The position numbers were made by a program, and so were the translations under genes. The notes beneath the pieces are model-generated. The model was not told the origin of the DNA, did not search any database, and saw only the letters and a program-made list of their open reading frames with translations. This document shows positions 8,882 through 17,432 of a stretch of 64,000 nucleotides of DNA, in pieces. The stretch is from Candidatus Bathyarchaeota archaeon (GTDB taxonomy: Archaea > Thermoproteota > Bathyarchaeia > Bathyarchaeales > Bathycorpusculaceae), in contig CAWHVC010000002.1 of NCBI GenBank assembly GCA_963832745.1, positions 224,001 through 288,000 on the forward strand, written 5' to 3'. Each line of letters opens with the position of its first letter. Position 1 is the first letter of the stretch.

Positions 8882-9667
8882 TTGAATACTAGACTTAAAA
8901 CCCAAGACATCGCTGTAATAGCTATCTGTTCAGCACTTTACGCAGTATTTGGAATTTTAACTGGCGGCCTAACCTTTTTCGGAATAGGTTTTCTTCCTGC
9001 AGTTGTTATCCCCGCAGTTTTTGCTGCACTTTACGGTCCATGGGTTGGCGGCATAAGCGGTGCAATAGGCATTTTCATTCGAGACATGGTTGTCCACGGA
9101 AACCCCGCCTTAAGCCTCGCCGCTGGCGTTCCACCAAACTTCATATTATTCTTCATGATTGGCTACTTATACTCCAAAAACATCAGCTTAAAACAGGCTC
9201 TTGCAGGCGTAACAATAGCTGCTGTCGGGTTACTGGTTCCTTCATTAGTGTTCCTTCCAGATATGGCAGCTTATGGGGGGGAGAGTTTTACAAATGAAGC
9301 CTTCTTACTTACCTTTATGTTAACCATAATTGCCAGTTTAGTTATTATCACATTGATTTCTATTCGCTATACCGAATGGAGAAGCTACGCTATTGGCGCC
9401 GTGGTTGGTCAAATCGCAGGTGGACTTTTACTTTCTGTAATAATATGGCTAGTCAGTCCCTTGTTTCTGCAAACTCTTGGGCTTAGTGAACCTTTAGGTG
9501 CTGCTTTGATTTTGCCAATTTTTATTTGGACAATAGCAACAGAAATCCCGTTCATTCTCTTAGCTGGACCGCCAATAATTAAAACAGTACAAAAAGCCTT
9601 TCCAGCACTAAAATATAGGAATAAACCACAAGGAAAAGGCGGAATTGTTGCAAAAGAAAGTCGTTAA
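8882..9667 (+). CDS. ECF transporter S component, probably for pantothenate/pantoate
   Basis: IAVIAICSALYA, PAVVIPAVFAALYGPWVGGISGAIG; multiple TMs; overlaps the pantoate kinase gene. Confidence 0.75.
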   Translation: MNTRLKTQDIAVIAICSALYAVFGILTGGLTFFGIGFLPAVVIPAVFAALYGPWVGGISGAIGIFIRDMVVHGNPALSLAAGVPPNFILFFMIGYLYSKNISLKQALAGVTIAAVGLLVPSLVFLPDMAAYGGESFTNEAFLLTFMLTIIASLVIITLISIRYTEWRSYAIGAVVGQIAGGLLLSVIIWLVSPLFLQTLGLSEPLGAALILPIFIWTIATEIPFILLAGPPIIKTVQKAFPALKYRNKPQGKGGIVAKESR

Positions 9668-10601
9668 AGCTTTTGCGCCTGGAGCAATCTCCAGCTTCTT
9701 CGAAATTTTTGACACCAACTTAGACGGCACCCCAATCACCGACCTGTCACGTATGGGCGCAAAAGGCGGCGGCTTTGGACTCAACTGTGGCGTCCACACC
9801 AAAGTAACCCTCGAAGACGCCCCTGAAAACAACATCCAAGTATACATTAACAATCAGCCAGCATCAGGCGCTAAAGTCACCCAAAACGTAACCCAAACAC
9901 TCCTATGCCTAACCACCAAAAAATATGCAGTCACGGTTGAGCACAAAATTGATGTTCCTATCGGCATGGGTTTTGGCACCAGTGCAGGCGGCGCTTTAAC
10001 CACAGGATTGGCTTTCAAAGAAGCGATGGGTTTACCTTTGACGTATAACCAAATCGGCAAAATCGCACACATAGCCGAAATCCAGTCGCAAACGGGGTTG
10101 GGCACGGTTAGCTCATTAACTGTTGGCGGCGGTTTAATCCTTGTAACTGAACCAGGCGCGCCAGGAGTATGCCAAATCGACCGCATCCCCATCAACCCCG
10201 ACTACGTAGTTGTCTCAGGCTTCTATGACACAAGAATCTCCAAAACCCTGCTTTCCTCGCCTGAAAAGAAAATTGAGATTAACCGTTACGGCAAACAAAC
10301 ACTCGAACAAATTCTCAAAGACCCCAGTTTAGAAAATTTTCTCTCAAGCTGCTGGATGTTTGCCCAAAAAGCCGGTTTCGCATCCCAAGGTGTTCGTGAA
10401 CTGGTCAGGATAGCTGTGAAGGCGGGGGCGGTTGGTGCAGCCCAAAACATGATAGGTGAAGCAGTACACGCCGTGGTTTTGGAGGAAAACGCCCTTTCTG
10501 TGGCAGAAGCTTTTAAGCAAGTTTTACCAGAGAAGCAAGTGTTAATGTGTAAAGTGGATTTTCAAGGTGCCAGGTTGGTTGGCAATGAAGAAGCAATTTA
10601 G
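9645..10601 (+). CDS. pok: Pantoate kinase (GHMP family)
   Basis: AFAPGAISSFF, PIGMGFGTSAG GHMP loop, AHIAEIQSQTGLGTV, AAQNMIGEAV. Confidence 0.9.
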   Translation: MLQKKVVKAFAPGAISSFFEIFDTNLDGTPITDLSRMGAKGGGFGLNCGVHTKVTLEDAPENNIQVYINNQPASGAKVTQNVTQTLLCLTTKKYAVTVEHKIDVPIGMGFGTSAGGALTTGLAFKEAMGLPLTYNQIGKIAHIAEIQSQTGLGTVSSLTVGGGLILVTEPGAPGVCQIDRIPINPDYVVVSGFYDTRISKTLLSSPEKKIEINRYGKQTLEQILKDPSLENFLSSCWMFAQKAGFASQGVRELVRIAVKAGAVGAAQNMIGEAVHAVVLEENALSVAEAFKQVLPEKQVLMCKVDFQGARLVGNEEAI

Positions 10602-11067
10602 AAAAGTTGCGGTAGGCGGAACCTTTGACCAGTTGCACAAGGGACATAGGGAACTGTTAAGCAAAGCCTTTGAAGTAGGCGAATACGTGCTTATCGGGTT
10701 AACAAGCGACGAGTTTGTCGCAAACATGCATAAACCCCACAAAACCGCGCCTTACGCTGAGAGGTTTGCGGAGTTGACCGGTTTTTTGGATAAATCTGGT
10801 TTTAAGAACCGTTTTGAAATTTCTCAATTAAATAACTCGTACGGGTTAACCCTAAACAGGGACGGCTTAGACGCTTTGGTTGTCAGCCAAGATACAGTGA
10901 AAACTGGTGAATTAATCAACAAGAAACGTGTTGAGTCAGGATTGCCGCAGTTAAGTATAGTGGAAATTACTTTGGTGCCTGCAGAGAATAAGAAACCAAT
11001 TTCTTCCACACGTATTCACAATCATGAAATTGACAGAAATGGGCACCTGCTAAAACCCGAAGCCTAA
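10585..11067 (+). CDS. coaD: Phosphopantetheine adenylyltransferase (archaeal type)
   Basis: VAVGGTFDQLHKGH, GLTSDEF, LVVSQDT, ISSTRI. Confidence 0.92.
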   Translation: MKKQFRKVAVGGTFDQLHKGHRELLSKAFEVGEYVLIGLTSDEFVANMHKPHKTAPYAERFAELTGFLDKSGFKNRFEISQLNNSYGLTLNRDGLDALVVSQDTVKTGELINKKRVESGLPQLSIVEITLVPAENKKPISSTRIHNHEIDRNGHLLKPEA

Positions 11068-11072
11068 ACTGC

Positions 11073-12002
11073 CTATTGGATTTCGCCGACCACGTTGACG
11101 GGTTTAGGTATCAAATCTTTTAGGTCTTCTAAGCGTTCAGGGTCAACGCTTGCCAAAACCACTGTTGCTGGTCCCGCGGACTTGTTAAGGTCCAAGCCTT
11201 CAATGTCAAAGAGTTTTAGTTGCCTGCCAACTCCATACGCCATCATACGCGCTTCCGAGGCAATCCCAAACGTGCCAACAGCCGCAACGTCATGCACGTA
11301 CTTTCTTTGAACAAGCTGCCCCACATTACGCAAATCCGCAATCTCCCCACGCGCCTCAGCAGGAATAACTTCTTCACCAACCTTAGGCCGCCCAATTGCA
11401 ACAATTTTGTCGCCCGGGCACGTTCTTGCCAACCGCAACTCCGCCTCGTTCGCAAATCCAACAACGGTTAAGCCTACACCAGTTTGCAAGGTTTCCATGT
11501 TGTCTTCAGTGTTTTCCAGCAGAACCTGATTGGGGTCTAGGCCCAGTAGACGGGTTTCTTTGCGTATGCCTTCAAGGATTTGGTTGCCTGTTGGGTCTTT
11601 CTCGACGCCCAGAGTGGCTGAAATTAGTAGGGGGAAAGCGCCTGTTGCGGTTACGTCCATTAGTGCAACGCGGGCAAGGAATTTTCCGAGGACTGCGCCG
11701 GTGACTTTGATTTTGTCTAGCTCTTTGGAGCCGATTGCGCCGCTGCTGGTGGAGCCTGTGACTATGGCGTGTCCTGTTGGTACTTTTATGATTGAGACGT
11801 CGCCGCGTCTGGTGTAGTCCATCTGCGCTGGTTTTACTTGGAAGACGATGGGGCGTAGCATTGTGCCTACGTTTTCGATTATGTGTAGGTACATTGTGAG
11901 GGCTTGTCGTATGACTTCGCTTCTTGTTAACTCGTGTTTTTTGGCGAGGGCATCTACGTCGTTGGCGACTTTGTCGGGTAAGCGGACGTTAATTATTTCC
12001 AA
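11073..12002 (-). CDS. CopG/RHH DNA-binding domain fused to an alpha-ribazole kinase (CblS)-like domain; putative regulator
   Basis: N-terminal IINVRLPD...TRSEVIRQAL; the rest parallels 13475..14254 (SSGAIGSKELD, ARVALMDV, QTGVGLTV, KSAGPAT). Confidence 0.8.
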   Translation of the reverse strand: MEIINVRLPDKVANDVDALAKKHELTRSEVIRQALTMYLHIIENVGTMLRPIVFQVKPAQMDYTRRGDVSIIKVPTGHAIVTGSTSSGAIGSKELDKIKVTGAVLGKFLARVALMDVTATGAFPLLISATLGVEKDPTGNQILEGIRKETRLLGLDPNQVLLENTEDNMETLQTGVGLTVVGFANEAELRLARTCPGDKIVAIGRPKVGEEVIPAEARGEIADLRNVGQLVQRKYVHDVAAVGTFGIASEARMMAYGVGRQLKLFDIEGLDLNKSAGPATVVLASVDPERLEDLKDLIPKPVNVVGEIQ

Positions 12003-12011
12003 TCAAGTGCA

Positions 12012-12032
12012 CCTGTGTTACAATTGTAATAC
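12012..12032 (-). promoter_or_regulatory. Candidate RHH operator, copy 1
   Basis: Minus strand GTATTACAATTGTAACACAGG, with palindromic core TTACAATTGTAA, 10 nt before the start of the RHH fusion gene. Confidence 0.65.
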
Positions 12033-12142
12033 GTTTTGGGTTTTTATCTTTTTTACCTCTGCAGCCACATTTAGCAACTGCTGCGTGGTTCTTAGTAAAT
12101 TATTTAAACTAAAAACAATTGAATTATCTAAGGTGACTCTTT

Positions 12143-12826
12143 ATGCTCAAAAAATTGGTTGCAACCATAATTATCCTTAGCTTCTTGTTAACCGGTTGCA
12201 TAGGCATCGCCTTTTGTCAGGATTCGACTTCCATTGGCGTTAAGAAAGGTTACTGGATGGAATACACGGTTAGTGGATCAGGAAATCTTCCAGAAGGACA
12301 TGACATTGTTTGGGCAAGAATGGAAATCGTTGAGGTCGCACAAGACGGCAGCAAATTCTGGGCAAACATTGTTTCAATAGCGCGTAATGGTTCAATTTAC
12401 AGTTCGGTAAGAGACTTTGATTTTGCAGCTGGCGATGTTGAGGCTTGGATTATTATTCCTGCAAACCTTAACCCCGGCGAAAGTTTCTATGATAATTTGG
12501 CAAATAGTAGCATAACGATTCAGGGCGAAGAAACCAGAATGCTTGCAGGAGCCGACCGCACGGTTACTTACGCTAACACTACTGAGAGAGCTAAAGTCTG
12601 GGACAAAACTACTGGCATGTATGTTGAAACTATCGATACCTTGCCAGACTATCAGATTAGCGCGAACATGACTGCAACAAACATTTGGGAGCCGCAGGTT
12701 CTGGGTTTAGACCAAAGCGTATTCTACGTTGTTATAGCTGTTGTCGTTACAGCGATTGTTACGGCGGTTGTTTGTGTGCTTGTTGCTTGGCTGTTTATTA
12801 GAAGACGTGGCAAGGTGCAGCGTTAG
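12143..12826 (+). CDS. Secreted, C-terminally anchored surface protein
   Basis: Signal peptide, GVKKGYWMEY start, C-terminal TM followed by RRR. Confidence 0.8.
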   Translation: MLKKLVATIIILSFLLTGCIGIAFCQDSTSIGVKKGYWMEYTVSGSGNLPEGHDIVWARMEIVEVAQDGSKFWANIVSIARNGSIYSSVRDFDFAAGDVEAWIIIPANLNPGESFYDNLANSSITIQGEETRMLAGADRTVTYANTTERAKVWDKTTGMYVETIDTLPDYQISANMTATNIWEPQVLGLDQSVFYVVIAVVVTAIVTAVVCVLVAWLFIRRRGKVQR

Positions 12827-12871
12827 CGGTATTGTAGTTTCTCTTTTTCTTTCGCTTGTTTCCACTATTTT

Positions 12872-12892
12872 GTATTACAATTGTGTTACAGG
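12872..12892 (+). promoter_or_regulatory. Candidate RHH operator, copy 2
   Basis: GTATTACAATTGTGTTACAGG, 18/21 identical to copy 1, just upstream of the TATA-like TTTTATTT preceding cblT. Confidence 0.65.
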
Positions 12893-12941
12893 CGGCAACG
12901 CTTTTATTTTATCTATCCAGCAATAGCCAAAGTGAACGTTA

Positions 12942-13478
12942 ATGCAGAAACAAAAAACCCAAAGCAGAATCCCCAGTTACCTCTTCAGCAACCGACCAAG
13001 CGTACGAATCGCACGAATAGCCATCTTCACCGCCCTCGCCGTAGTCGGTTCATTCATAAAACCTGACCCTGCAAGTAGCATAGCCTTTGACTCCTTTGCA
13101 GGCTTCATTGTAGCTCTCCTCTTTGGCGCAACCGAAGGCGCACTCGTCTGCGGCTTAGGACACATGGCAACAGCAGTCGTCAGCGGGTTCCCATTGGGCA
13201 TCCTTCACGTTCCAATTGCAATAGGAATGGCAATCGCCGGAGCAGCCATAGGTGCAACAAACAAACTTAACCGCAAAGCGTTCATTCCAGCCCTAATCAT
13301 TGGCGTCATCATAAACACTGTAATGGTCTTCCCACTTGCCCCAATGTTGGGCGCCACTTTTGATGAAGGCTTAATCGTTGCAACCGCGCTGGCACCAGCC
13401 TTGCTTGTCGTCGCAAGCCTTAATGCCTTGCTTGCAGGCATAGTTTACATAGCAGTAAGAGGCAAAAAACCAGTTTGA
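12942..13478 (+). CDS. cblT: ECF S component, alpha-ribazole transporter CblT-like
   Basis: IAIFTALAVVGSFIK, SIAFDSFAGF, GHMATAVVSGFPLG..H; coupled to the cblS-like gene. Confidence 0.8.
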   Translation: MQKQKTQSRIPSYLFSNRPSVRIARIAIFTALAVVGSFIKPDPASSIAFDSFAGFIVALLFGATEGALVCGLGHMATAVVSGFPLGILHVPIAIGMAIAGAAIGATNKLNRKAFIPALIIGVIINTVMVFPLAPMLGATFDEGLIVATALAPALLVVASLNALLAGIVYIAVRGKKPV

Positions 13479-14254
13479 CAAACAAAACCAGTTTTTCTCC
13501 CTTTTCAATCCCAACCCCGAGAGACCTAAGAATTTTTCAGTTCACTCCCTCTGACGTAATGGTGATAGGCTGCGATTCAAGCGGCGCCATCGGACCCAAA
13601 CCCCTCGACCGCCTCAAAGTTGACGGGTATATTGTAGGAAAATTCGCCGCCCGAGTCGCATTAATGGAAGTAATTTCTACAGGCGCTAATCCTCTTTGCG
13701 TCGTCGACAACTTAAGCGTCGAACTGAACCCAACAGGTCTTGAAATACTGCGAGGCGTACGCGAAGAAGCAGTCCAAGCAGGCTTAGACCCAAAGTTGGC
13801 TGTAACAGGTAGTGCGGAAAAGAATTTTCCTTCTGACCAAACCGGCGTGGGCGTCACTGTGATTGGTATTTGCCGTAAAGACAGGCTGCGAATTGGCACC
13901 ATTCAAGCTGGGGCTGCTCTTGTGGTCATTGGCGCTCCTGCAGTGGGCTCGGAAGTGTTGGCGGGTGAAAAGCAGGGTTCTAACACAACAATTTTGGATT
14001 TGCAAAAACTTTTGGAGCTCCCGTTTGTGCATGAAGTTATCCCCGTAGGTTCCGAGGGTATACAGCGGGAAATCAAAGTTTTAACAGAAACTCTGGACCT
14101 GAAATTTGAGCCTAACCCGTCTTGCAAGGTGAGTCTTGAAAAGTCTGCGGGTCCAGCTACAGCCCTTTTAGCCAGCCTGCCAGTGGATAAAGCAGCGTGC
14201 CTTGAGGATTTATTTGATAAACCAGTAAACCTTGTCGGAACCATACTTAGCTAA
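13475..14254 (+). CDS. cblS: Alpha-ribazole kinase CblS-like (AIR synthase-related fold)
   Basis: RDL...VIGCDSSGAIGPKPLD, ARVALMEV, VTGSAEKNF..QTGVGVTVIG, EVIPVGSEGI, KSAGPAT. Confidence 0.8.
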   Translation: MTNKTSFSPFSIPTPRDLRIFQFTPSDVMVIGCDSSGAIGPKPLDRLKVDGYIVGKFAARVALMEVISTGANPLCVVDNLSVELNPTGLEILRGVREEAVQAGLDPKLAVTGSAEKNFPSDQTGVGVTVIGICRKDRLRIGTIQAGAALVVIGAPAVGSEVLAGEKQGSNTTILDLQKLLELPFVHEVIPVGSEGIQREIKVLTETLDLKFEPNPSCKVSLEKSAGPATALLASLPVDKAACLEDLFDKPVNLVGTILS

Positions 14255-14291
14255 TTTTTCTTTGAAAAAAAAGAAGTGTGGGTTGTTGTTT

Positions 14292-15551
14292 TTACCAGTA
14301 GAAGTGCAATGATTGGAAGATGTTTATCCAGAAGTTCAAAATGTTCTGGAAGAATGATGGCGTGTCTGGTTGTGTTGGTGTTGTTGTCGGTTTTGGGGTT
14401 GTTGATGGTTGGGCTGTTGGTTGTGTTGTGGGTTTTGGAGTTTGGGTTGGGGTTGGCGTTGTTGTTGGTGAAGGTGTTGAAGTTGGTTTAGGTGTTGGCG
14501 TTGGGGTTGCGGTTGGTGTCGGTGTGGGTGTTGGTGTTGTGGTTGGTGTGGGGGTAGCTGTTGGTTTGGGTGTTGGGCTTGGGGTTGGTGAAGGGGTTGC
14601 GGTGGGTGTTGGGGTCGGTGTTGGAGTAGCTGTAGGTGAGGGTTTTGGAGTAGGCGTAGTTGTTGGAGTTGGGGTTGGTGTTGTGGTTGGTTTCGCTGGC
14701 GCTGTTACTGATGGAAAGTCAAGTCCAAGCTGTTGATACTTGGGCATGTTGTTGAGGTTTTCATTCATCCAAACCGTGTTGCCGATACCCATAGATGCAC
14801 ACTGTGATAAGAACTGGTTTAGTTCACCAACAGTTGAGCTTGTGAATGAAGAATACTCGTTATAGTCTGCGCCGACTTCTGTGTTGATTAGTTTTATTCC
14901 TTTAGATTGAGCAGTTTGCATCTGTGAGATTGCGCCTGAAACACTCCAACTGTTGAAGTAGTAGTGGTATCCTTGGTATGTGTTGTCTAAGGGGTCATTT
15001 ACTTTGGTCCATGGTTGATTCCATTTGTCAAAGAGTATTCCGTTTGTGTAACCTGCTGCGCGAATGTCAGTTACAAGGCTCTGCATTCTTGAATAGAAGT
15101 CGTTTGAAACATACTCGTTTACTAACTCAACAATTACTCTTGGATTGTTTGGGTATTCTTGCAGAACTTCAAAGACGCTGTTCTTTGCTGCTGCCCAATT
15201 GTTTTGTGCTGCTGTTGCTGATGCTTCGGTTGGCGGATAAAGGTGGTTGCGGTCAACAATTATGGTGAAGTCGCTGTGGTCAAGGAAGTACTGAACGAAT
15301 TCTTTGTGGTAAGGATGTGGACCGCTTGACCATACTGGATTTGCGCTCATGCGGTAAGTGTTTAGTCCGTTGGCTTTCATTGTGCTGATGATGCTGTCGA
15401 TTTGGGCTGTGCTGGTTGGGTACCCGCTTAAGCCCATAAAGACTTTGTTTGTTGTTTGCGTTGTTGCGGCGTTTGCATAGAAGGATACTGCGCTAAACAG
15501 TAGCGGTAGTATTATGCTAAGAGTTATTATGGCTGTTACTATTTTTTTCAA
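14292..15551 (-). CDS. Secreted GH5-like glycoside hydrolase with Pro/Thr linker and aromatic tail
   Basis: Signal peptide, GLNTYRM, ELVNEY acid/base motif, YHYY, NTEVG nucleophile motif, long PT repeat. Confidence 0.8.
   Translation of the reverse strand: MKKIVTAIITLSIILPLLFSAVSFYANAATTQTTNKVFMGLSGYPTSTAQIDSIISTMKANGLNTYRMSANPVWSSGPHPYHKEFVQYFLDHSDFTIIVDRNHLYPPTEASATAAQNNWAAAKNSVFEVLQEYPNNPRVIVELVNEYVSNDFYSRMQSLVTDIRAAGYTNGILFDKWNQPWTKVNDPLDNTYQGYHYYFNSWSVSGAISQMQTAQSKGIKLINTEVGADYNEYSSFTSSTVGELNQFLSQCASMGIGNTVWMNENLNNMPKYQQLGLDFPSVTAPAKPTTTPTPTPTTTPTPKPSPTATPTPTPTPTATPSPTPSPTPKPTATPTPTTTPTPTPTPTATPTPTPKPTSTPSPTTTPTPTQTPKPTTQPTAQPSTTPKPTTTPTQPDTPSFFQNILNFWINIFQSLHFYW
14370..14700 (-). repeat. 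Pro-Thr low-complexity linker (coding)
   Basis: PTPTPT repeats inside the GH5-like gene. Confidence 0.85.
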
Positions 15552-15878: not shown

Positions 15879-17432
15879 TTACCAGAAGAAGAAGTGCCAA
15901 ATGCTAAAGTGCATTGGGAAGTAGTAGGTTCTCCAGAAGTGCCAGGATTGGAACGGATGAAATATTGACGGTATGCTTAGTTGTGTTGGCGTTGTTGTCG
16001 GGTTTGGAGTTGTTGATGGTTCGGTTGTAGGTTGCGTTGTCGGTGTTGTTTGTGGGTCATCTTGTCCTGAACCGATTGGAGTTGTAGTTGGTGTTGGTGT
16101 CTGGGTTGGTGTTGGTGTTTCAGTTGGTGCTGGAGTCGCTGTTGCAGTAGGTGTTGGTGTCGGAGTTGTGGTACCAGTTGGTGGGAATACTTTCTGTTGT
16201 TGTAGGTATTGTTGTGTGATTACTCCGCCTGCTGTCGGTGCAAAGTTTGGTGCACCAGTGTGTAGCCGGAAGATGCCGATGTCTCGGAACCAGTGGACAA
16301 TCCAGTTGATTCCCCATTCATTGAAGATTTTCAGTTCATTAGCTAAGGCTTGTTGTTCATAGTTTGCTTCTGCGCCGCTTTTGTCCATGTTTGCTCCGCA
16401 TTCAGTTACGAATATTGGCTTGTTTAGTGTGTTTAGGACGTAATCGATTTTTTCTGCGGTAAATGCGCGTTTGAGTTCATTGTAGTCGTATGCGTGGTTT
16501 GTTCCCCATTTGGCGATTGAGTCTGGGTTTGAGTAGATGCCTGTTTGTCCGTATTCGCGGTAGAGGTGTGTAACGTAAACCAGATTGTTTGTTGGGTCCT
16601 GAAGGTTTGCAGTGTTTACCCAGTCCATTGTTGAACCGCCTCCATAGTCTAGGTCTACCCAACTGCCCATGTCCCATTGTGCAAGGATTAGGTTTTGAGC
16701 GCCTGTTCCACGGATTGCGTTGATTACTTGTTGTTGTACGCCAAAGTATTCTTGAGCTGCTGCACCGTCTGCTTTTGGTTCATTCCAGATTTCAAAGAGT
16801 ACGTTATTGTAGCCTTTGAGTTCGTTTGCTACATCAGCCCACCAGTTTACAAAGTCCTGTTTGCTGGTTATGACTGAAGATGCTCCTGCCGATGTTTGGT
16901 ATGGTGGGTATGGCAGTGGATCTTGGTTTCCTCCGTTGAAGTAGTTAGTTACGCGGTAGCCGGTGAAGATTACGTACATGTCGCGTTCTGCAGCGAATTC
17001 AATGAGGCGTTTTACCGCTTCTCGGCTTGAAATGCTTGAATAAGGTGTGCTTAAGTCATATTTCCAGTTGTCAACAGATTGTATGCAACGGATGGTGTTT
17101 GCGCCCCAAGATTTCATTTGGTCAAGTTCAGCTTGAACGTTGGCGTCGCTCCACAGTGCGTTACCATTCCAGGTTCCATCTGGGTCGTCGGCCAACTCAA
17201 CTTTTTGTAGGCCTCGTAGGTAAATTGTGTTTCCAGAAGAATCTTTGATTAGTTTTCCTTCTGTGTGAAGGGGCAGTGTACTTGTTGATGTTGCTGCTTG
17301 AACTCCAGTAGCCATAAGTATTGATACCATGCTCAAAAGTAGCACGAAAGACAAGCATATGACTATGGGTTTAGCAAGCGTGTGAGTGGCTTTTAGGGGT
17401 AGCAGTGATTTAGCTCTTGTTTTTAGTTTCAT
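15879..17432 (-). CDS. Secreted GH5 cellulase-family glycoside hydrolase with Pro/Thr linker and aromatic tail
   Basis: LHTEGKLIKDSSGNTIYLRG, WGANTIR, FEIWNEP, HLY, PIFVTECG, PT linker. Confidence 0.9.
   Translation of the reverse strand: MKLKTRAKSLLPLKATHTLAKPIVICLSFVLLLSMVSILMATGVQAATSTSTLPLHTEGKLIKDSSGNTIYLRGLQKVELADDPDGTWNGNALWSDANVQAELDQMKSWGANTIRCIQSVDNWKYDLSTPYSSISSREAVKRLIEFAAERDMYVIFTGYRVTNYFNGGNQDPLPYPPYQTSAGASSVITSKQDFVNWWADVANELKGYNNVLFEIWNEPKADGAAAQEYFGVQQQVINAIRGTGAQNLILAQWDMGSWVDLDYGGGSTMDWVNTANLQDPTNNLVYVTHLYREYGQTGIYSNPDSIAKWGTNHAYDYNELKRAFTAEKIDYVLNTLNKPIFVTECGANMDKSGAEANYEQQALANELKIFNEWGINWIVHWFRDIGIFRLHTGAPNFAPTAGGVITQQYLQQQKVFPPTGTTTPTPTPTATATPAPTETPTPTQTPTPTTTPIGSGQDDPQTTPTTQPTTEPSTTPNPTTTPTQLSIPSIFHPFQSWHFWRTYYFPMHFSIWHFFFW

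Follow-up and report, generated by a model that had tools for sequence, protein, structure and literature searches.

The DNA analysed here (the window) is a stretch of 64,000 nucleotides from a Candidatus Bathyarchaeota archaeon (GenBank assembly GCA_963832745.1, contig CAWHVC010000002.1, positions 224,001 to 288,000), and our subject is one gene on its minus strand (11073-12002), together with the DNA sites that lie before it and before the neighbouring cblT-cblS pair. The gene starts with TTG at 12002, has its stop codon at 11073-11075 and encodes a 309-amino acid (aa) protein, hereafter the fusion protein. A first-pass annotation had proposed that it unites a ribbon-helix-helix (RHH) domain with a paralogue of the nearby CblS-like kinase, and both parts hold. 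The RHH domain (residues 4-39, 11886-11993 on the minus strand; translation checked) passes the membership threshold of Pfam RHH_1 (PF01402; 32.7 bits, cut-off 20.5, E 6.3e-8), and residues 68-308 align without gaps to the 259-aa kinase (41% identity over 241 residues, E 5e-57). After a linker of about 20 residues the remainder of the protein (residues 62-309, 11076-11819) forms a CblS-like putative sensor domain with a PurM-superfamily fold, as judged from homology and an AlphaFold2 model. Residues 100-154 match Pfam AIRS weakly, at 23.3 bits and just under the cut-off of 24.

The pair lies on the plus strand. It consists of a cblT-like gene (12942-13478, ATG at 12942) for a 178-aa S component of an energy-coupling factor (ECF) transporter (PF12822, 42.6 bits, cut-off 30.7) and of the kinase gene (13475-14254), assigned by homology, whose TTG start overlaps the cblT stop codon. 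An open reading frame (ORF) of 227 aa (12143-12826, plus strand) is inserted between the fusion gene and cblT. By eye its product starts with a segment like a signal peptide and ends in a hydrophobic stretch; Pfam and NCBIfam gave no match, and its membership in the regulon is uncertain. In one relative (G259) an ORF of similar design sits at the equivalent place and is not homologous to that of the window (E 0.45).

The same 21-bp sequence, GTATTACAATTGTNNNACAGG, precedes both transcription units, as had been claimed: it matches the window exactly twice without mismatch, at 12012-12032 on the minus strand and at 12872-12892 on the plus strand. With three mismatches allowed no further match was found in the window, the expected number was 0.09, and none of 100 shuffles held two or more. 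Putative operator 1 (GTATTACAATTGTAACAC, 12015-12032, minus strand) lies between the putative TATA-like box of the fusion gene (AGATAAAA, 12042-12049, minus strand, read from the sequence) and the start codon. Putative operator 2 (GTATTACAATTGTGTTAC, 12872-12889, plus strand) lies upstream of cblT-cblS, followed by a 10-nt spacer (12890-12899), which could hold a transcription factor B recognition element (BRE), and by the putative TATA-like box GCTTTTATTTTATC (12900-12913, plus strand). At both promoters these positions relative to the boxes are those of the first-pass annotation.

Across the 3.02-Mb genome the core TTACAATTGTNNNAC occurs without mismatch in only three places. The 21-nt palindrome, with up to two mismatches, gave three forward and three reverse matches, against none in either direction in the reversed control. 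A position weight matrix (PWM), built with the three own-genome sites included, likewise found three places with at least 20 bits, among them operator 1 as the top match and operator 2 as the third-best; the next place scored 15.2 bits and the best in the reversed-genome control 18.4. The third strong site (C5:466023-466046) precedes a gene outside the window for a 208-aa membrane protein (G000:C5:466105-466728; L011 1580-2206). On its other side, a gene for a TackOD1-domain protein with zinc ribbons and an Mrr-like nuclease domain (L011 179-1465) ends 57 nt before the operator.

Operator conservation and regulon in relatives

Distribution was counted in an even draw of 301 genomes of the class Bathyarchaeia. 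The full-length fusion occurs in 24 of them (cut by contig ends in two), and a further 19 hold the kinase without the fusion. Conservation of the motif upstream of orthologues, on which the first-pass annotation had staked its proposal, was indeed found. The site precedes the fusion gene in all seven named loci, and the pattern RYAYTACNNNNGTARTRY, with up to two mismatches, is present in 19 of the 22 orthologous loci, at -41 to -19 from the fusion start and downstream of the TATA-like box. In these orthologous loci the box is of the ATAAAAG type and is separated from the operator by 6-10 nt. The exceptions are G188, with a degenerate palindrome, G197, with a 5-nt spacer, and G259, with none. 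What is conserved is an 18-bp palindrome, RYAYTAC-N4-GTARTRY, whose half-site centres are 11 bp apart. Since the central four bases vary, CAATTG does not belong to the conserved part, and of the 21-bp operator first proposed the palindrome stands, but the central CAATTG and the trailing AGG do not.

Four pattern matches in the 83 kb of the 22 fusion loci are unexplained, and 21.3 kb from six loci of genomes with the kinase but without the fusion contained none. In five relatives the degenerate pattern with one mismatch gave 4-13 matches per strand, and the reversed control gave 4-13 as well. Regulons are therefore not definable from the pattern alone, and the analysis took genes as its starting point and then read the DNA before them.

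The fusion gene is divergent from cblT-cblS in all 11 genomes that have both, directly in nine and with one inserted ORF in two, the window included. Where the ORF call was unambiguous, in six of the directly divergent pairs, the intergenic region measures 75-91 bp. Read by eye, the nine direct loci each have a single operator and a single A/T box common to both genes: in the direction of the fusion gene the box is followed after 10 nt by the operator and after about 9 nt more by the start, and in the direction of cblT the operator is followed after 10 nt by GCTTTTAT and then by cblT. The same spacing recurs where the transporter gene has a promoter to itself. In all 14 stand-alone transporter promoters read (12 of orthologues of the 208-aa protein, the window cblT and the cblT of G259), exactly 10 nt separate the operator core from a GCTTTTAT-type box.

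The 208-aa protein has 774 homologues, and the five that are organism-named come from metagenome-assembled genomes (MAGs) of Bathyarchaeia, Bathyarchaeota or Methanocella. It occurs in 16 of the 301 genomes, 13 of which hold the fusion; a draw of one genome per genus found it in 3 of 61, too few to inform. Its partition is marked: 12 of the 13 genomes with the fusion but without CblS have it, against one of the 11 with both, namely the window genome. The operator precedes all 14 family-f1 orthologues and is directly upstream in 12. In G247 and G262 it precedes, divergent from the fusion gene, an operon of cobT (TIGR00303, 394 bits, cut-off 240) and a transporter gene of the 208-aa type, and it is absent before the orthologue in G129, which belongs to another family and has no fusion. 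We regard the 208-aa protein as a transporter of a new family and a candidate importer of lower ligands. The regulon first proposed, the fusion gene itself and cblTS, thus has both its operators but is wider, taking in the gene of the 208-aa protein and, in relatives, cobT. Given that 13 of the 24 fusion-bearing genomes have no separate CblS, the fusion is not simply a regulator of cblTS.

The same palindrome, at a fixed spacing, therefore stands before the genes of two alternative routes to alpha-ribazole-5'-phosphate. One route would use an S component and CblS, and the other the new transporter, sometimes in an operon with CobT. Linkage to S components extends beyond the class, to two further families. 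In G519 the fusion gene (RHH match of 23.8 bits) is divergent from a CblT-like S component gene and has a palindrome of its own, GTAACAC-N4-GTGTCAC. In G663, a distant member of the Thermoproteota, the fusion gene, a CblT-like S component gene and a PfkB-family kinase gene lie on the same strand (L128 33-2454), and the PfkB kinase may be a non-orthologous replacement of CblS. As for a control element in RNA, Rfam gave no family in 10500-14800, even at E 1; in two Firmicute loci scanned in the same way, the sole cobalamin riboswitch lies downstream of cobC and not before cblS.

The kinase and the kinase-like domain of the fusion

In Firmicutes, CblT and CblS serve the salvage of alpha-ribazole (PMC6167548; PMC6461909; PMC6722938). 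The window kinase matches seven plasmid records in a tblastn search, with 31-37% identity over 85-92% of the query. On Lactiplantibacillus plantarum pMF1298-5 the match (35.5% identity, E 9e-31) is a nameless gene between an ECF S component gene and genes for CobS and a histidine phosphatase, in an operon whose members have been named CblT, CblS, CobS and CobC (PMC6722938). In a Listeria monocytogenes record it (33.5% identity, E 2e-28) precedes cobU-cobS-cobC. The clusters nearest to the window kinase in a protein-language-model Atlas are named "alpha-ribazole kinase" or "CblS" (score 0.97). No Pfam or NCBIfam model names it and no CblS model was reached; ten bacterial kinase clusters carry only the names "AIR synthase related" or "selenophosphate synthetase-related", none of them CblS. 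Sequence searches of the PDB gave only weak PurM, SelD and ThiL matches, and the PDB held no CblS structure on which to map the ligand pocket. The family is small: of 1.84 billion proteins searched, 492 representatives match at E 0.001 or better.

Gene order in other Bathyarchaeia points the same way. At 14 places in 13 genomes the kinase gene follows cobS on the same strand at a distance of 1.13-1.21 kb. The gene in between encodes, in G165 (L070 329-1462), a MobA-like (CobY-like) nucleotidyltransferase fused to a CblT-like S component according to Pfam; the equivalent 374-aa ORF of G315 (L073 338-1462) has a CblT-like C-terminal half, the Pfam domain check covering the G165 protein. The window cblT is 44-47% identical to the S-component half of such CobY::CblT fusions, as other Bathyarchaeia encode them in their cobS operons. 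Of the 43 genomes with fusion or kinase 39 have CobS, against 53 of the 258 without, although related genomes are not independent. Together, the homology to the Firmicute loci, the Atlas names and the archaeal cobS operons lead us to accept "CblS-like" for the window kinase, the assignment made in the first-pass annotation. In the window genome itself, an archaeal cobT (TIGR00303), cobS and a CobY-like gene stand side by side, and there are three EcfT-type genes; unlike in other Bathyarchaeia, its cblT-cblS pair is unlinked to cobS.

Two side observations concern these genes. CobY::CblT, an enzyme-transporter fusion, occurs between cobS and cblS in another Bathyarchaeia family. Moreover, the window genome has two CobS paralogues (G000:C3:650446-651141 and 678312-679088, 141 and 94 bits), a pair that recurs in 30 of the 32 CobS-positive genomes of family f1.

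The fusion protein has more than 1000 homologues. Among the 120 matches listed most are 309 aa long and about 80% identical or more, and the few that are organism-named come from Bathyarchaeia or Bathyarchaeota MAGs; their source names are "CopG family", "hypothetical" and "selenophosphate synthetase-related". Six more fusion clusters at 50% identity were found, five with source names (Asgard/Wukongarchaeota, Methylarchaceae, Methanophagales, "Halobacteria archaeon" and Methanomethylicota MAGs) and a sixth, P0245, nameless. A FastTree phylogeny of the kinase-like domain was built from 162 rows, comprising 28 fusions, 131 non-fused representatives (235-300 aa; 13 of 150 were set aside because of their length), the window kinase and two Firmicute genes. 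In this unrooted tree the 28 fusions fall on one side of a branch (support 95) and, together with the window kinase, are nested in a 41-row archaeal CblS-like group (support 98). A single origin of the fusions is compatible with this topology.

Pfam and NCBIfam give only RHH and AIRS-type matches on the fusion protein, with no winged-helix, riboflavin kinase or ThiN domain that would place it in the RbkR or ThiR families. The NCBIfam antitoxin models RelB and VapB reach 17.2 and 16.8 bits (cut-offs 50 and 60), and the aCcr1 model reaches 29.2 bits (cut-off 60). No toxin-like gene stands beside the fusion gene in the ORF lists of the window and its relatives; in the window its neighbours are the gene for phosphopantetheine adenylyltransferase (coaD), the unassigned ORF and cblT-cblS.

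A further question regards catalysis. We compared the 28 fusions with 134 kinases over the 39 columns in which conservation among the kinases reaches 80% or more; 30 of these are kept by at least 80% of the fusions and nine are not. The replacement of CDSSG (13571-13585, plus strand, in the kinase gene) by STSSG (11739-11753, minus strand, in the fusion gene), noticed in the first reading of the sequence, proved to be general. Its Asp34, present in 99% of the kinases, is kept in none of the fusions, which have Thr in 22, Ser in five and Ile in one. Ser113 (99% of the kinases) is likewise kept in none, Arg16 (94%) is kept in three and replaced by Gly in 24, Cys33 (87%) is kept in two and replaced by Ser in 21, and Glu65 (99%) is Asp in 25. 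The near-invariant CblS set R16, C33-D34 and G112-S113, conserved at 84-99% in the kinases, is thus not kept by the fusions, which do retain the kinase-family residues D17, S35, K42, D45, E115, N117, T123 and E199. In a weak ThiL profile match, a lead only (E about 0.1), Asp34 falls on the Asp of ICADTLVAGRHF, which we take to be one of the Mg-ATP ligands of ThiL. Having lost the near-invariant CDSSG Asp and its neighbours, the fusion probably binds its ligand without phosphorylating it; as judged from these substitutions, loss of catalysis is plausible and somewhat favoured.

The AlphaFold2 model of the fusion, on an 80-row alignment, has a pLDDT of 93 and a pTM of 0.79. It shows an N-terminal strand region, two RHH helices, a less confident linker (residues 41-60) and an alpha/beta domain. 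Searched with Foldseek, it is closest to SelD (3u0o, E 7.3e-15), followed by PurM, PurL, ThiL and HypE. A predicted homodimer scored an ipSAE of 0.83 (median of three runs) against 0.00 for the best of three controls, above a mark that was reached by 20 of 30 proteins solved as pairs and by one of 23 solved as single chains. The runs share at least 90% of their contacts, with a partner pLDDT of at least 87, and the interface comprises residues 1-43 (RHH) and 54-187 (N-subdomain), the STSSG loop included. The fusion is thus predicted to dimerise through both the RHH domain and the N-subdomain of its kinase-like part, although this pass may reflect likeness to known structures, because RHH and PurM-superfamily dimers have already been solved.

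Further genes surround the locus. Downstream of the fusion gene, three genes overlap head to tail, encoding an ECF S component (8882-9667), pantoate kinase (9645-10601) and CoaD (10567-11067), and the genes in 8882-11067 resemble an operon for coenzyme A salvage or biosynthesis. In most relatives of family f1, too, the pantoate kinase gene and coaD run convergent with the fusion gene. We considered and rejected them as members of the system, as they carry no operator, and regard the association as synteny only. Beyond cblS, two genes on the minus strand (14292-15551 and 15879-17432) encode large secreted-looking proteins with long Pro/Thr-rich linkers and near-identical C-terminal tails.

Proposed mechanism and alternatives

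The fusion gene very likely encodes an autoregulated transcription factor of lower-ligand salvage genes. That this factor combines its RHH domain with a diverged archaeal copy of CblS sensing alpha-ribazole or its phosphate, and controls lower-ligand salvage in this way, seems to us probable. Taken by itself, the choice of alpha-ribazole or alpha-ribazole-5'-phosphate as the ligand is an even bet, and we infer that the fusion protein itself binds the operators. Operators of Arc, MetJ and CopG consist of two half-sites one helical turn (11 bp) apart, and by analogy two dimers of the fusion would bind the 18-bp palindrome, one at each half-site. Since operator 1 follows the TATA-like box and covers the probable transcription start of the fusion gene, ahead of the start codon, binding there should repress the factor's own gene. 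Before the lower-ligand genes, where the operator is 10 nt upstream of the box, binding could either recruit TATA-binding protein and transcription factor B (activation) or occlude the BRE (repression). A position just upstream of the TATA box is typical of archaeal activators. A reading as activation follows the authors of the RbkR study, who so read similar positions, and the precedents of TrmBL1 and SurR (see below), but the geometry leaves the sign evenly balanced. The likeliest ligand would be alpha-ribazole or alpha-ribazole-5'-phosphate, in which the CblS route and the CobT route both end, possibly together with ATP, and through it the factor would tune lower-ligand uptake and activation.

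More tentatively, and with some doubt on our part, the system could be an archaeal sensor of alpha-ribazole-5'-phosphate that is widespread, occurring in Bathyarchaeia and, to go by source names, also in MAGs of Asgard, Methanophagales and Methanomethylicota, and that switches the direction of transcription at a shared, bidirectional TATA box. From its site 10 nt away from the box, the bound factor would block its own gene and favour or permit transcription of the divergent lower-ligand genes. If true, such a switch would do for archaea the job of the cobalamin riboswitch in bacteria, the regulon would reveal a new family of importers of lower ligands (benzimidazole or its riboside), and the CobT and CblS routes would be used as alternatives.

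Several observations weigh against a factor of lower-ligand salvage that senses without catalysing and may activate its targets. With the operator only 10 nt from the TATA-like box, repression by BRE occlusion fits the geometry as well as activation does. The change of Glu65 to Asp restores a superfamily-typical residue (in a profile alignment to PurM, Glu65 falls on the Asp of the PurM-superfamily motif, which we take to be DX4GAXP), so that not every substitution suggests inactivation. The role of the archaeal CblS as an alpha-ribazole kinase rests on homology, and the compound imported by the 208-aa protein is not assigned: this protein has no Pfam family, no PDB match at E 10 and no profile or BLASTP similarity to CblT. 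Thirteen of the 24 fusion-bearing genomes have no separate CblS, which could mean that the fusion is still active as a kinase, and in G017 (97% complete) the fusion is present and neither CblS nor the transporter was found. G259 has the fusion gene without a recognisable operator before it, and conversely G019 (98% complete, 70 contigs; L114) has a perfect operator, the 10-nt spacer and GCTTTTAT before its transporter gene but no fusion gene, even at E 0.01. Finally, public sequencing runs yielded no RNA run holding this DNA; three DNA runs held 6-9% of the sampled words.

The genomes without CblS lend themselves to another explanation, in which the fusion is a bifunctional kinase and regulator and the only such kinase these genomes possess. 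RbkR is both at once (PMC5397151), and the kinase-family residues retained by the fusions, including an Asp of the DX4GAXP type, would suit an active enzyme. However, the CDSSG Asp and Ser113 are each replaced in all 28 fusions, and in CblS-less genomes the 208-aa transporter is the partner, in two cases encoded in one operon with cobT. Where such an operon is present no kinase is needed, the phosphate being the direct product of CobT. We hold a bifunctional protein to be unlikely.

The effector may also be a different one. The same regulator and operator could respond to a complete cobamide, a corrinoid precursor or another nucleoside-like compound, with the 208-aa protein importing something else. 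Room for this is left by the 208-aa protein itself, which is of no assigned family and has as its nearest named Atlas clusters QueT or ECF-S-like ones (0.91-0.93), by the ligand pocket, which cannot be mapped on a CblS structure, and by G663, where the S component is followed by a PfkB kinase and not by CblS. Nonetheless, all partners whose function can be assigned (cblS, cobT, cobS and cobY::cblT) act on the lower ligand or the nucleotide loop, and in the tree the sensor domain derives from CblS itself; another effector is therefore, in our view, decidedly improbable. It is harder still to credit that the palindrome is read by another factor or is a mere promoter feature, the fusion being an antitoxin-like RHH protein or an enzyme with a structural N-terminal extension. 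The operator of G019 without a detectable fusion gene would suit such a reading, as would the weak sub-threshold matches to RelB/VapB and aCcr1. Yet the operator is found at the fusion's own promoter in 19 of 22 loci and is absent from the six kinase loci without a fusion and from the G129 transporter, no toxin-like neighbour appears in the ORF lists, and the antitoxin matches stay near 17 bits where 50-60 are demanded. We give this last reading very little credence, and retain that of an autoregulated, ligand-sensing factor of lower-ligand salvage.

Comparison with known regulators

Food for comparison is offered first of all by RbkR, which consists of a winged-helix domain and an active CTP-dependent riboflavin kinase and whose operators, 1-12 nt upstream of promoter elements, have been read as activating (PMC5397151). 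As far as that report describes it, RbkR resembles the fusion in joining a DNA-binding domain to a kinase domain of the regulated vitamin pathway, and in a regulon made up of its own gene and of transporter and biosynthesis genes, with operators that vary between lineages and lie a few nt upstream of promoter elements. By the same description it does the job of a bacterial riboswitch; for the fusion this is an analogy only. The fusion differs in its RHH domain, its PurM/ThiL fold, the missing near-invariant Asp and the vitamin, a cobamide. To the Firmicute CblT/CblS systems the likeness is in the genes themselves, as 12942-14254 of the window holds an S component and a kinase, the latter 31-37% identical; however, the window pair is archaeal, a paralogue of its kinase is fused to an RHH domain, and there is no riboswitch match at the window locus.

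ThiR is an archaeal thiamine regulator with a ThiN-derived and probably non-catalytic sensor, and controls genes of vitamin biosynthesis and transport; its DNA-binding domain, sensor fold and vitamin all differ from those of the fusion. NikR couples an RHH domain to a C-terminal ACT-like nickel-binding domain and recognises a palindromic operator with half-sites about two helical turns apart. It shares with the fusion the RHH domain joined to a C-terminal sensory or oligomerisation domain and the palindromic operator, whereas the sensor of the fusion is an enzyme paralogue and its half-site centres are 11 bp apart. Arc, MetJ, CopG and aCcr1 have in common with it an RHH_1 domain and two half-sites one helical turn apart, placed for autoregulation, but are small proteins without an enzyme-like domain. 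Depending on the promoter, TrmBL1/Tgr and SurR have their sites either downstream of the TATA box or upstream of BRE/TATA, and their effect varies with this position. They belong to unrelated families, and the dual action of the fusion is deduced from position only.

To our knowledge, archaea generally lack cobalamin riboswitches, and we know of little on how they control cobamide supply. The locus offers a concrete candidate for a protein regulator of the lower-ligand branch, one whose 18-bp operator is defined and whose regulon is small, and it gives a functional handle on two unannotated families, the fusion and the membrane protein of roughly 200 aa. It is also a first indication that alpha-ribazole salvage of the CblT/CblS type is common in Bathyarchaeia, alternating with a CobT-plus-transporter route. 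Moreover, with divergent genes sharing one TATA-like box and the operator at a constant 10 nt from it, the promoters are a compact system in which to study activation versus repression in archaea. Full-text searches of one limited literature collection found no description of an RHH-CblS or RHH-AIRS fusion regulator or of its operator. As judged from its sequence, the fusion works like the enzyme-derived vitamin regulators of the RbkR and ThiR type, yet stands outside their families, and would be a further case of a recurring archaeal design in which a duplicated pathway enzyme becomes the sensor of a transcription factor. The design principle is thus already known from RbkR, ThiR and NikR, and the fusion itself is most likely a previously undescribed transcription factor.

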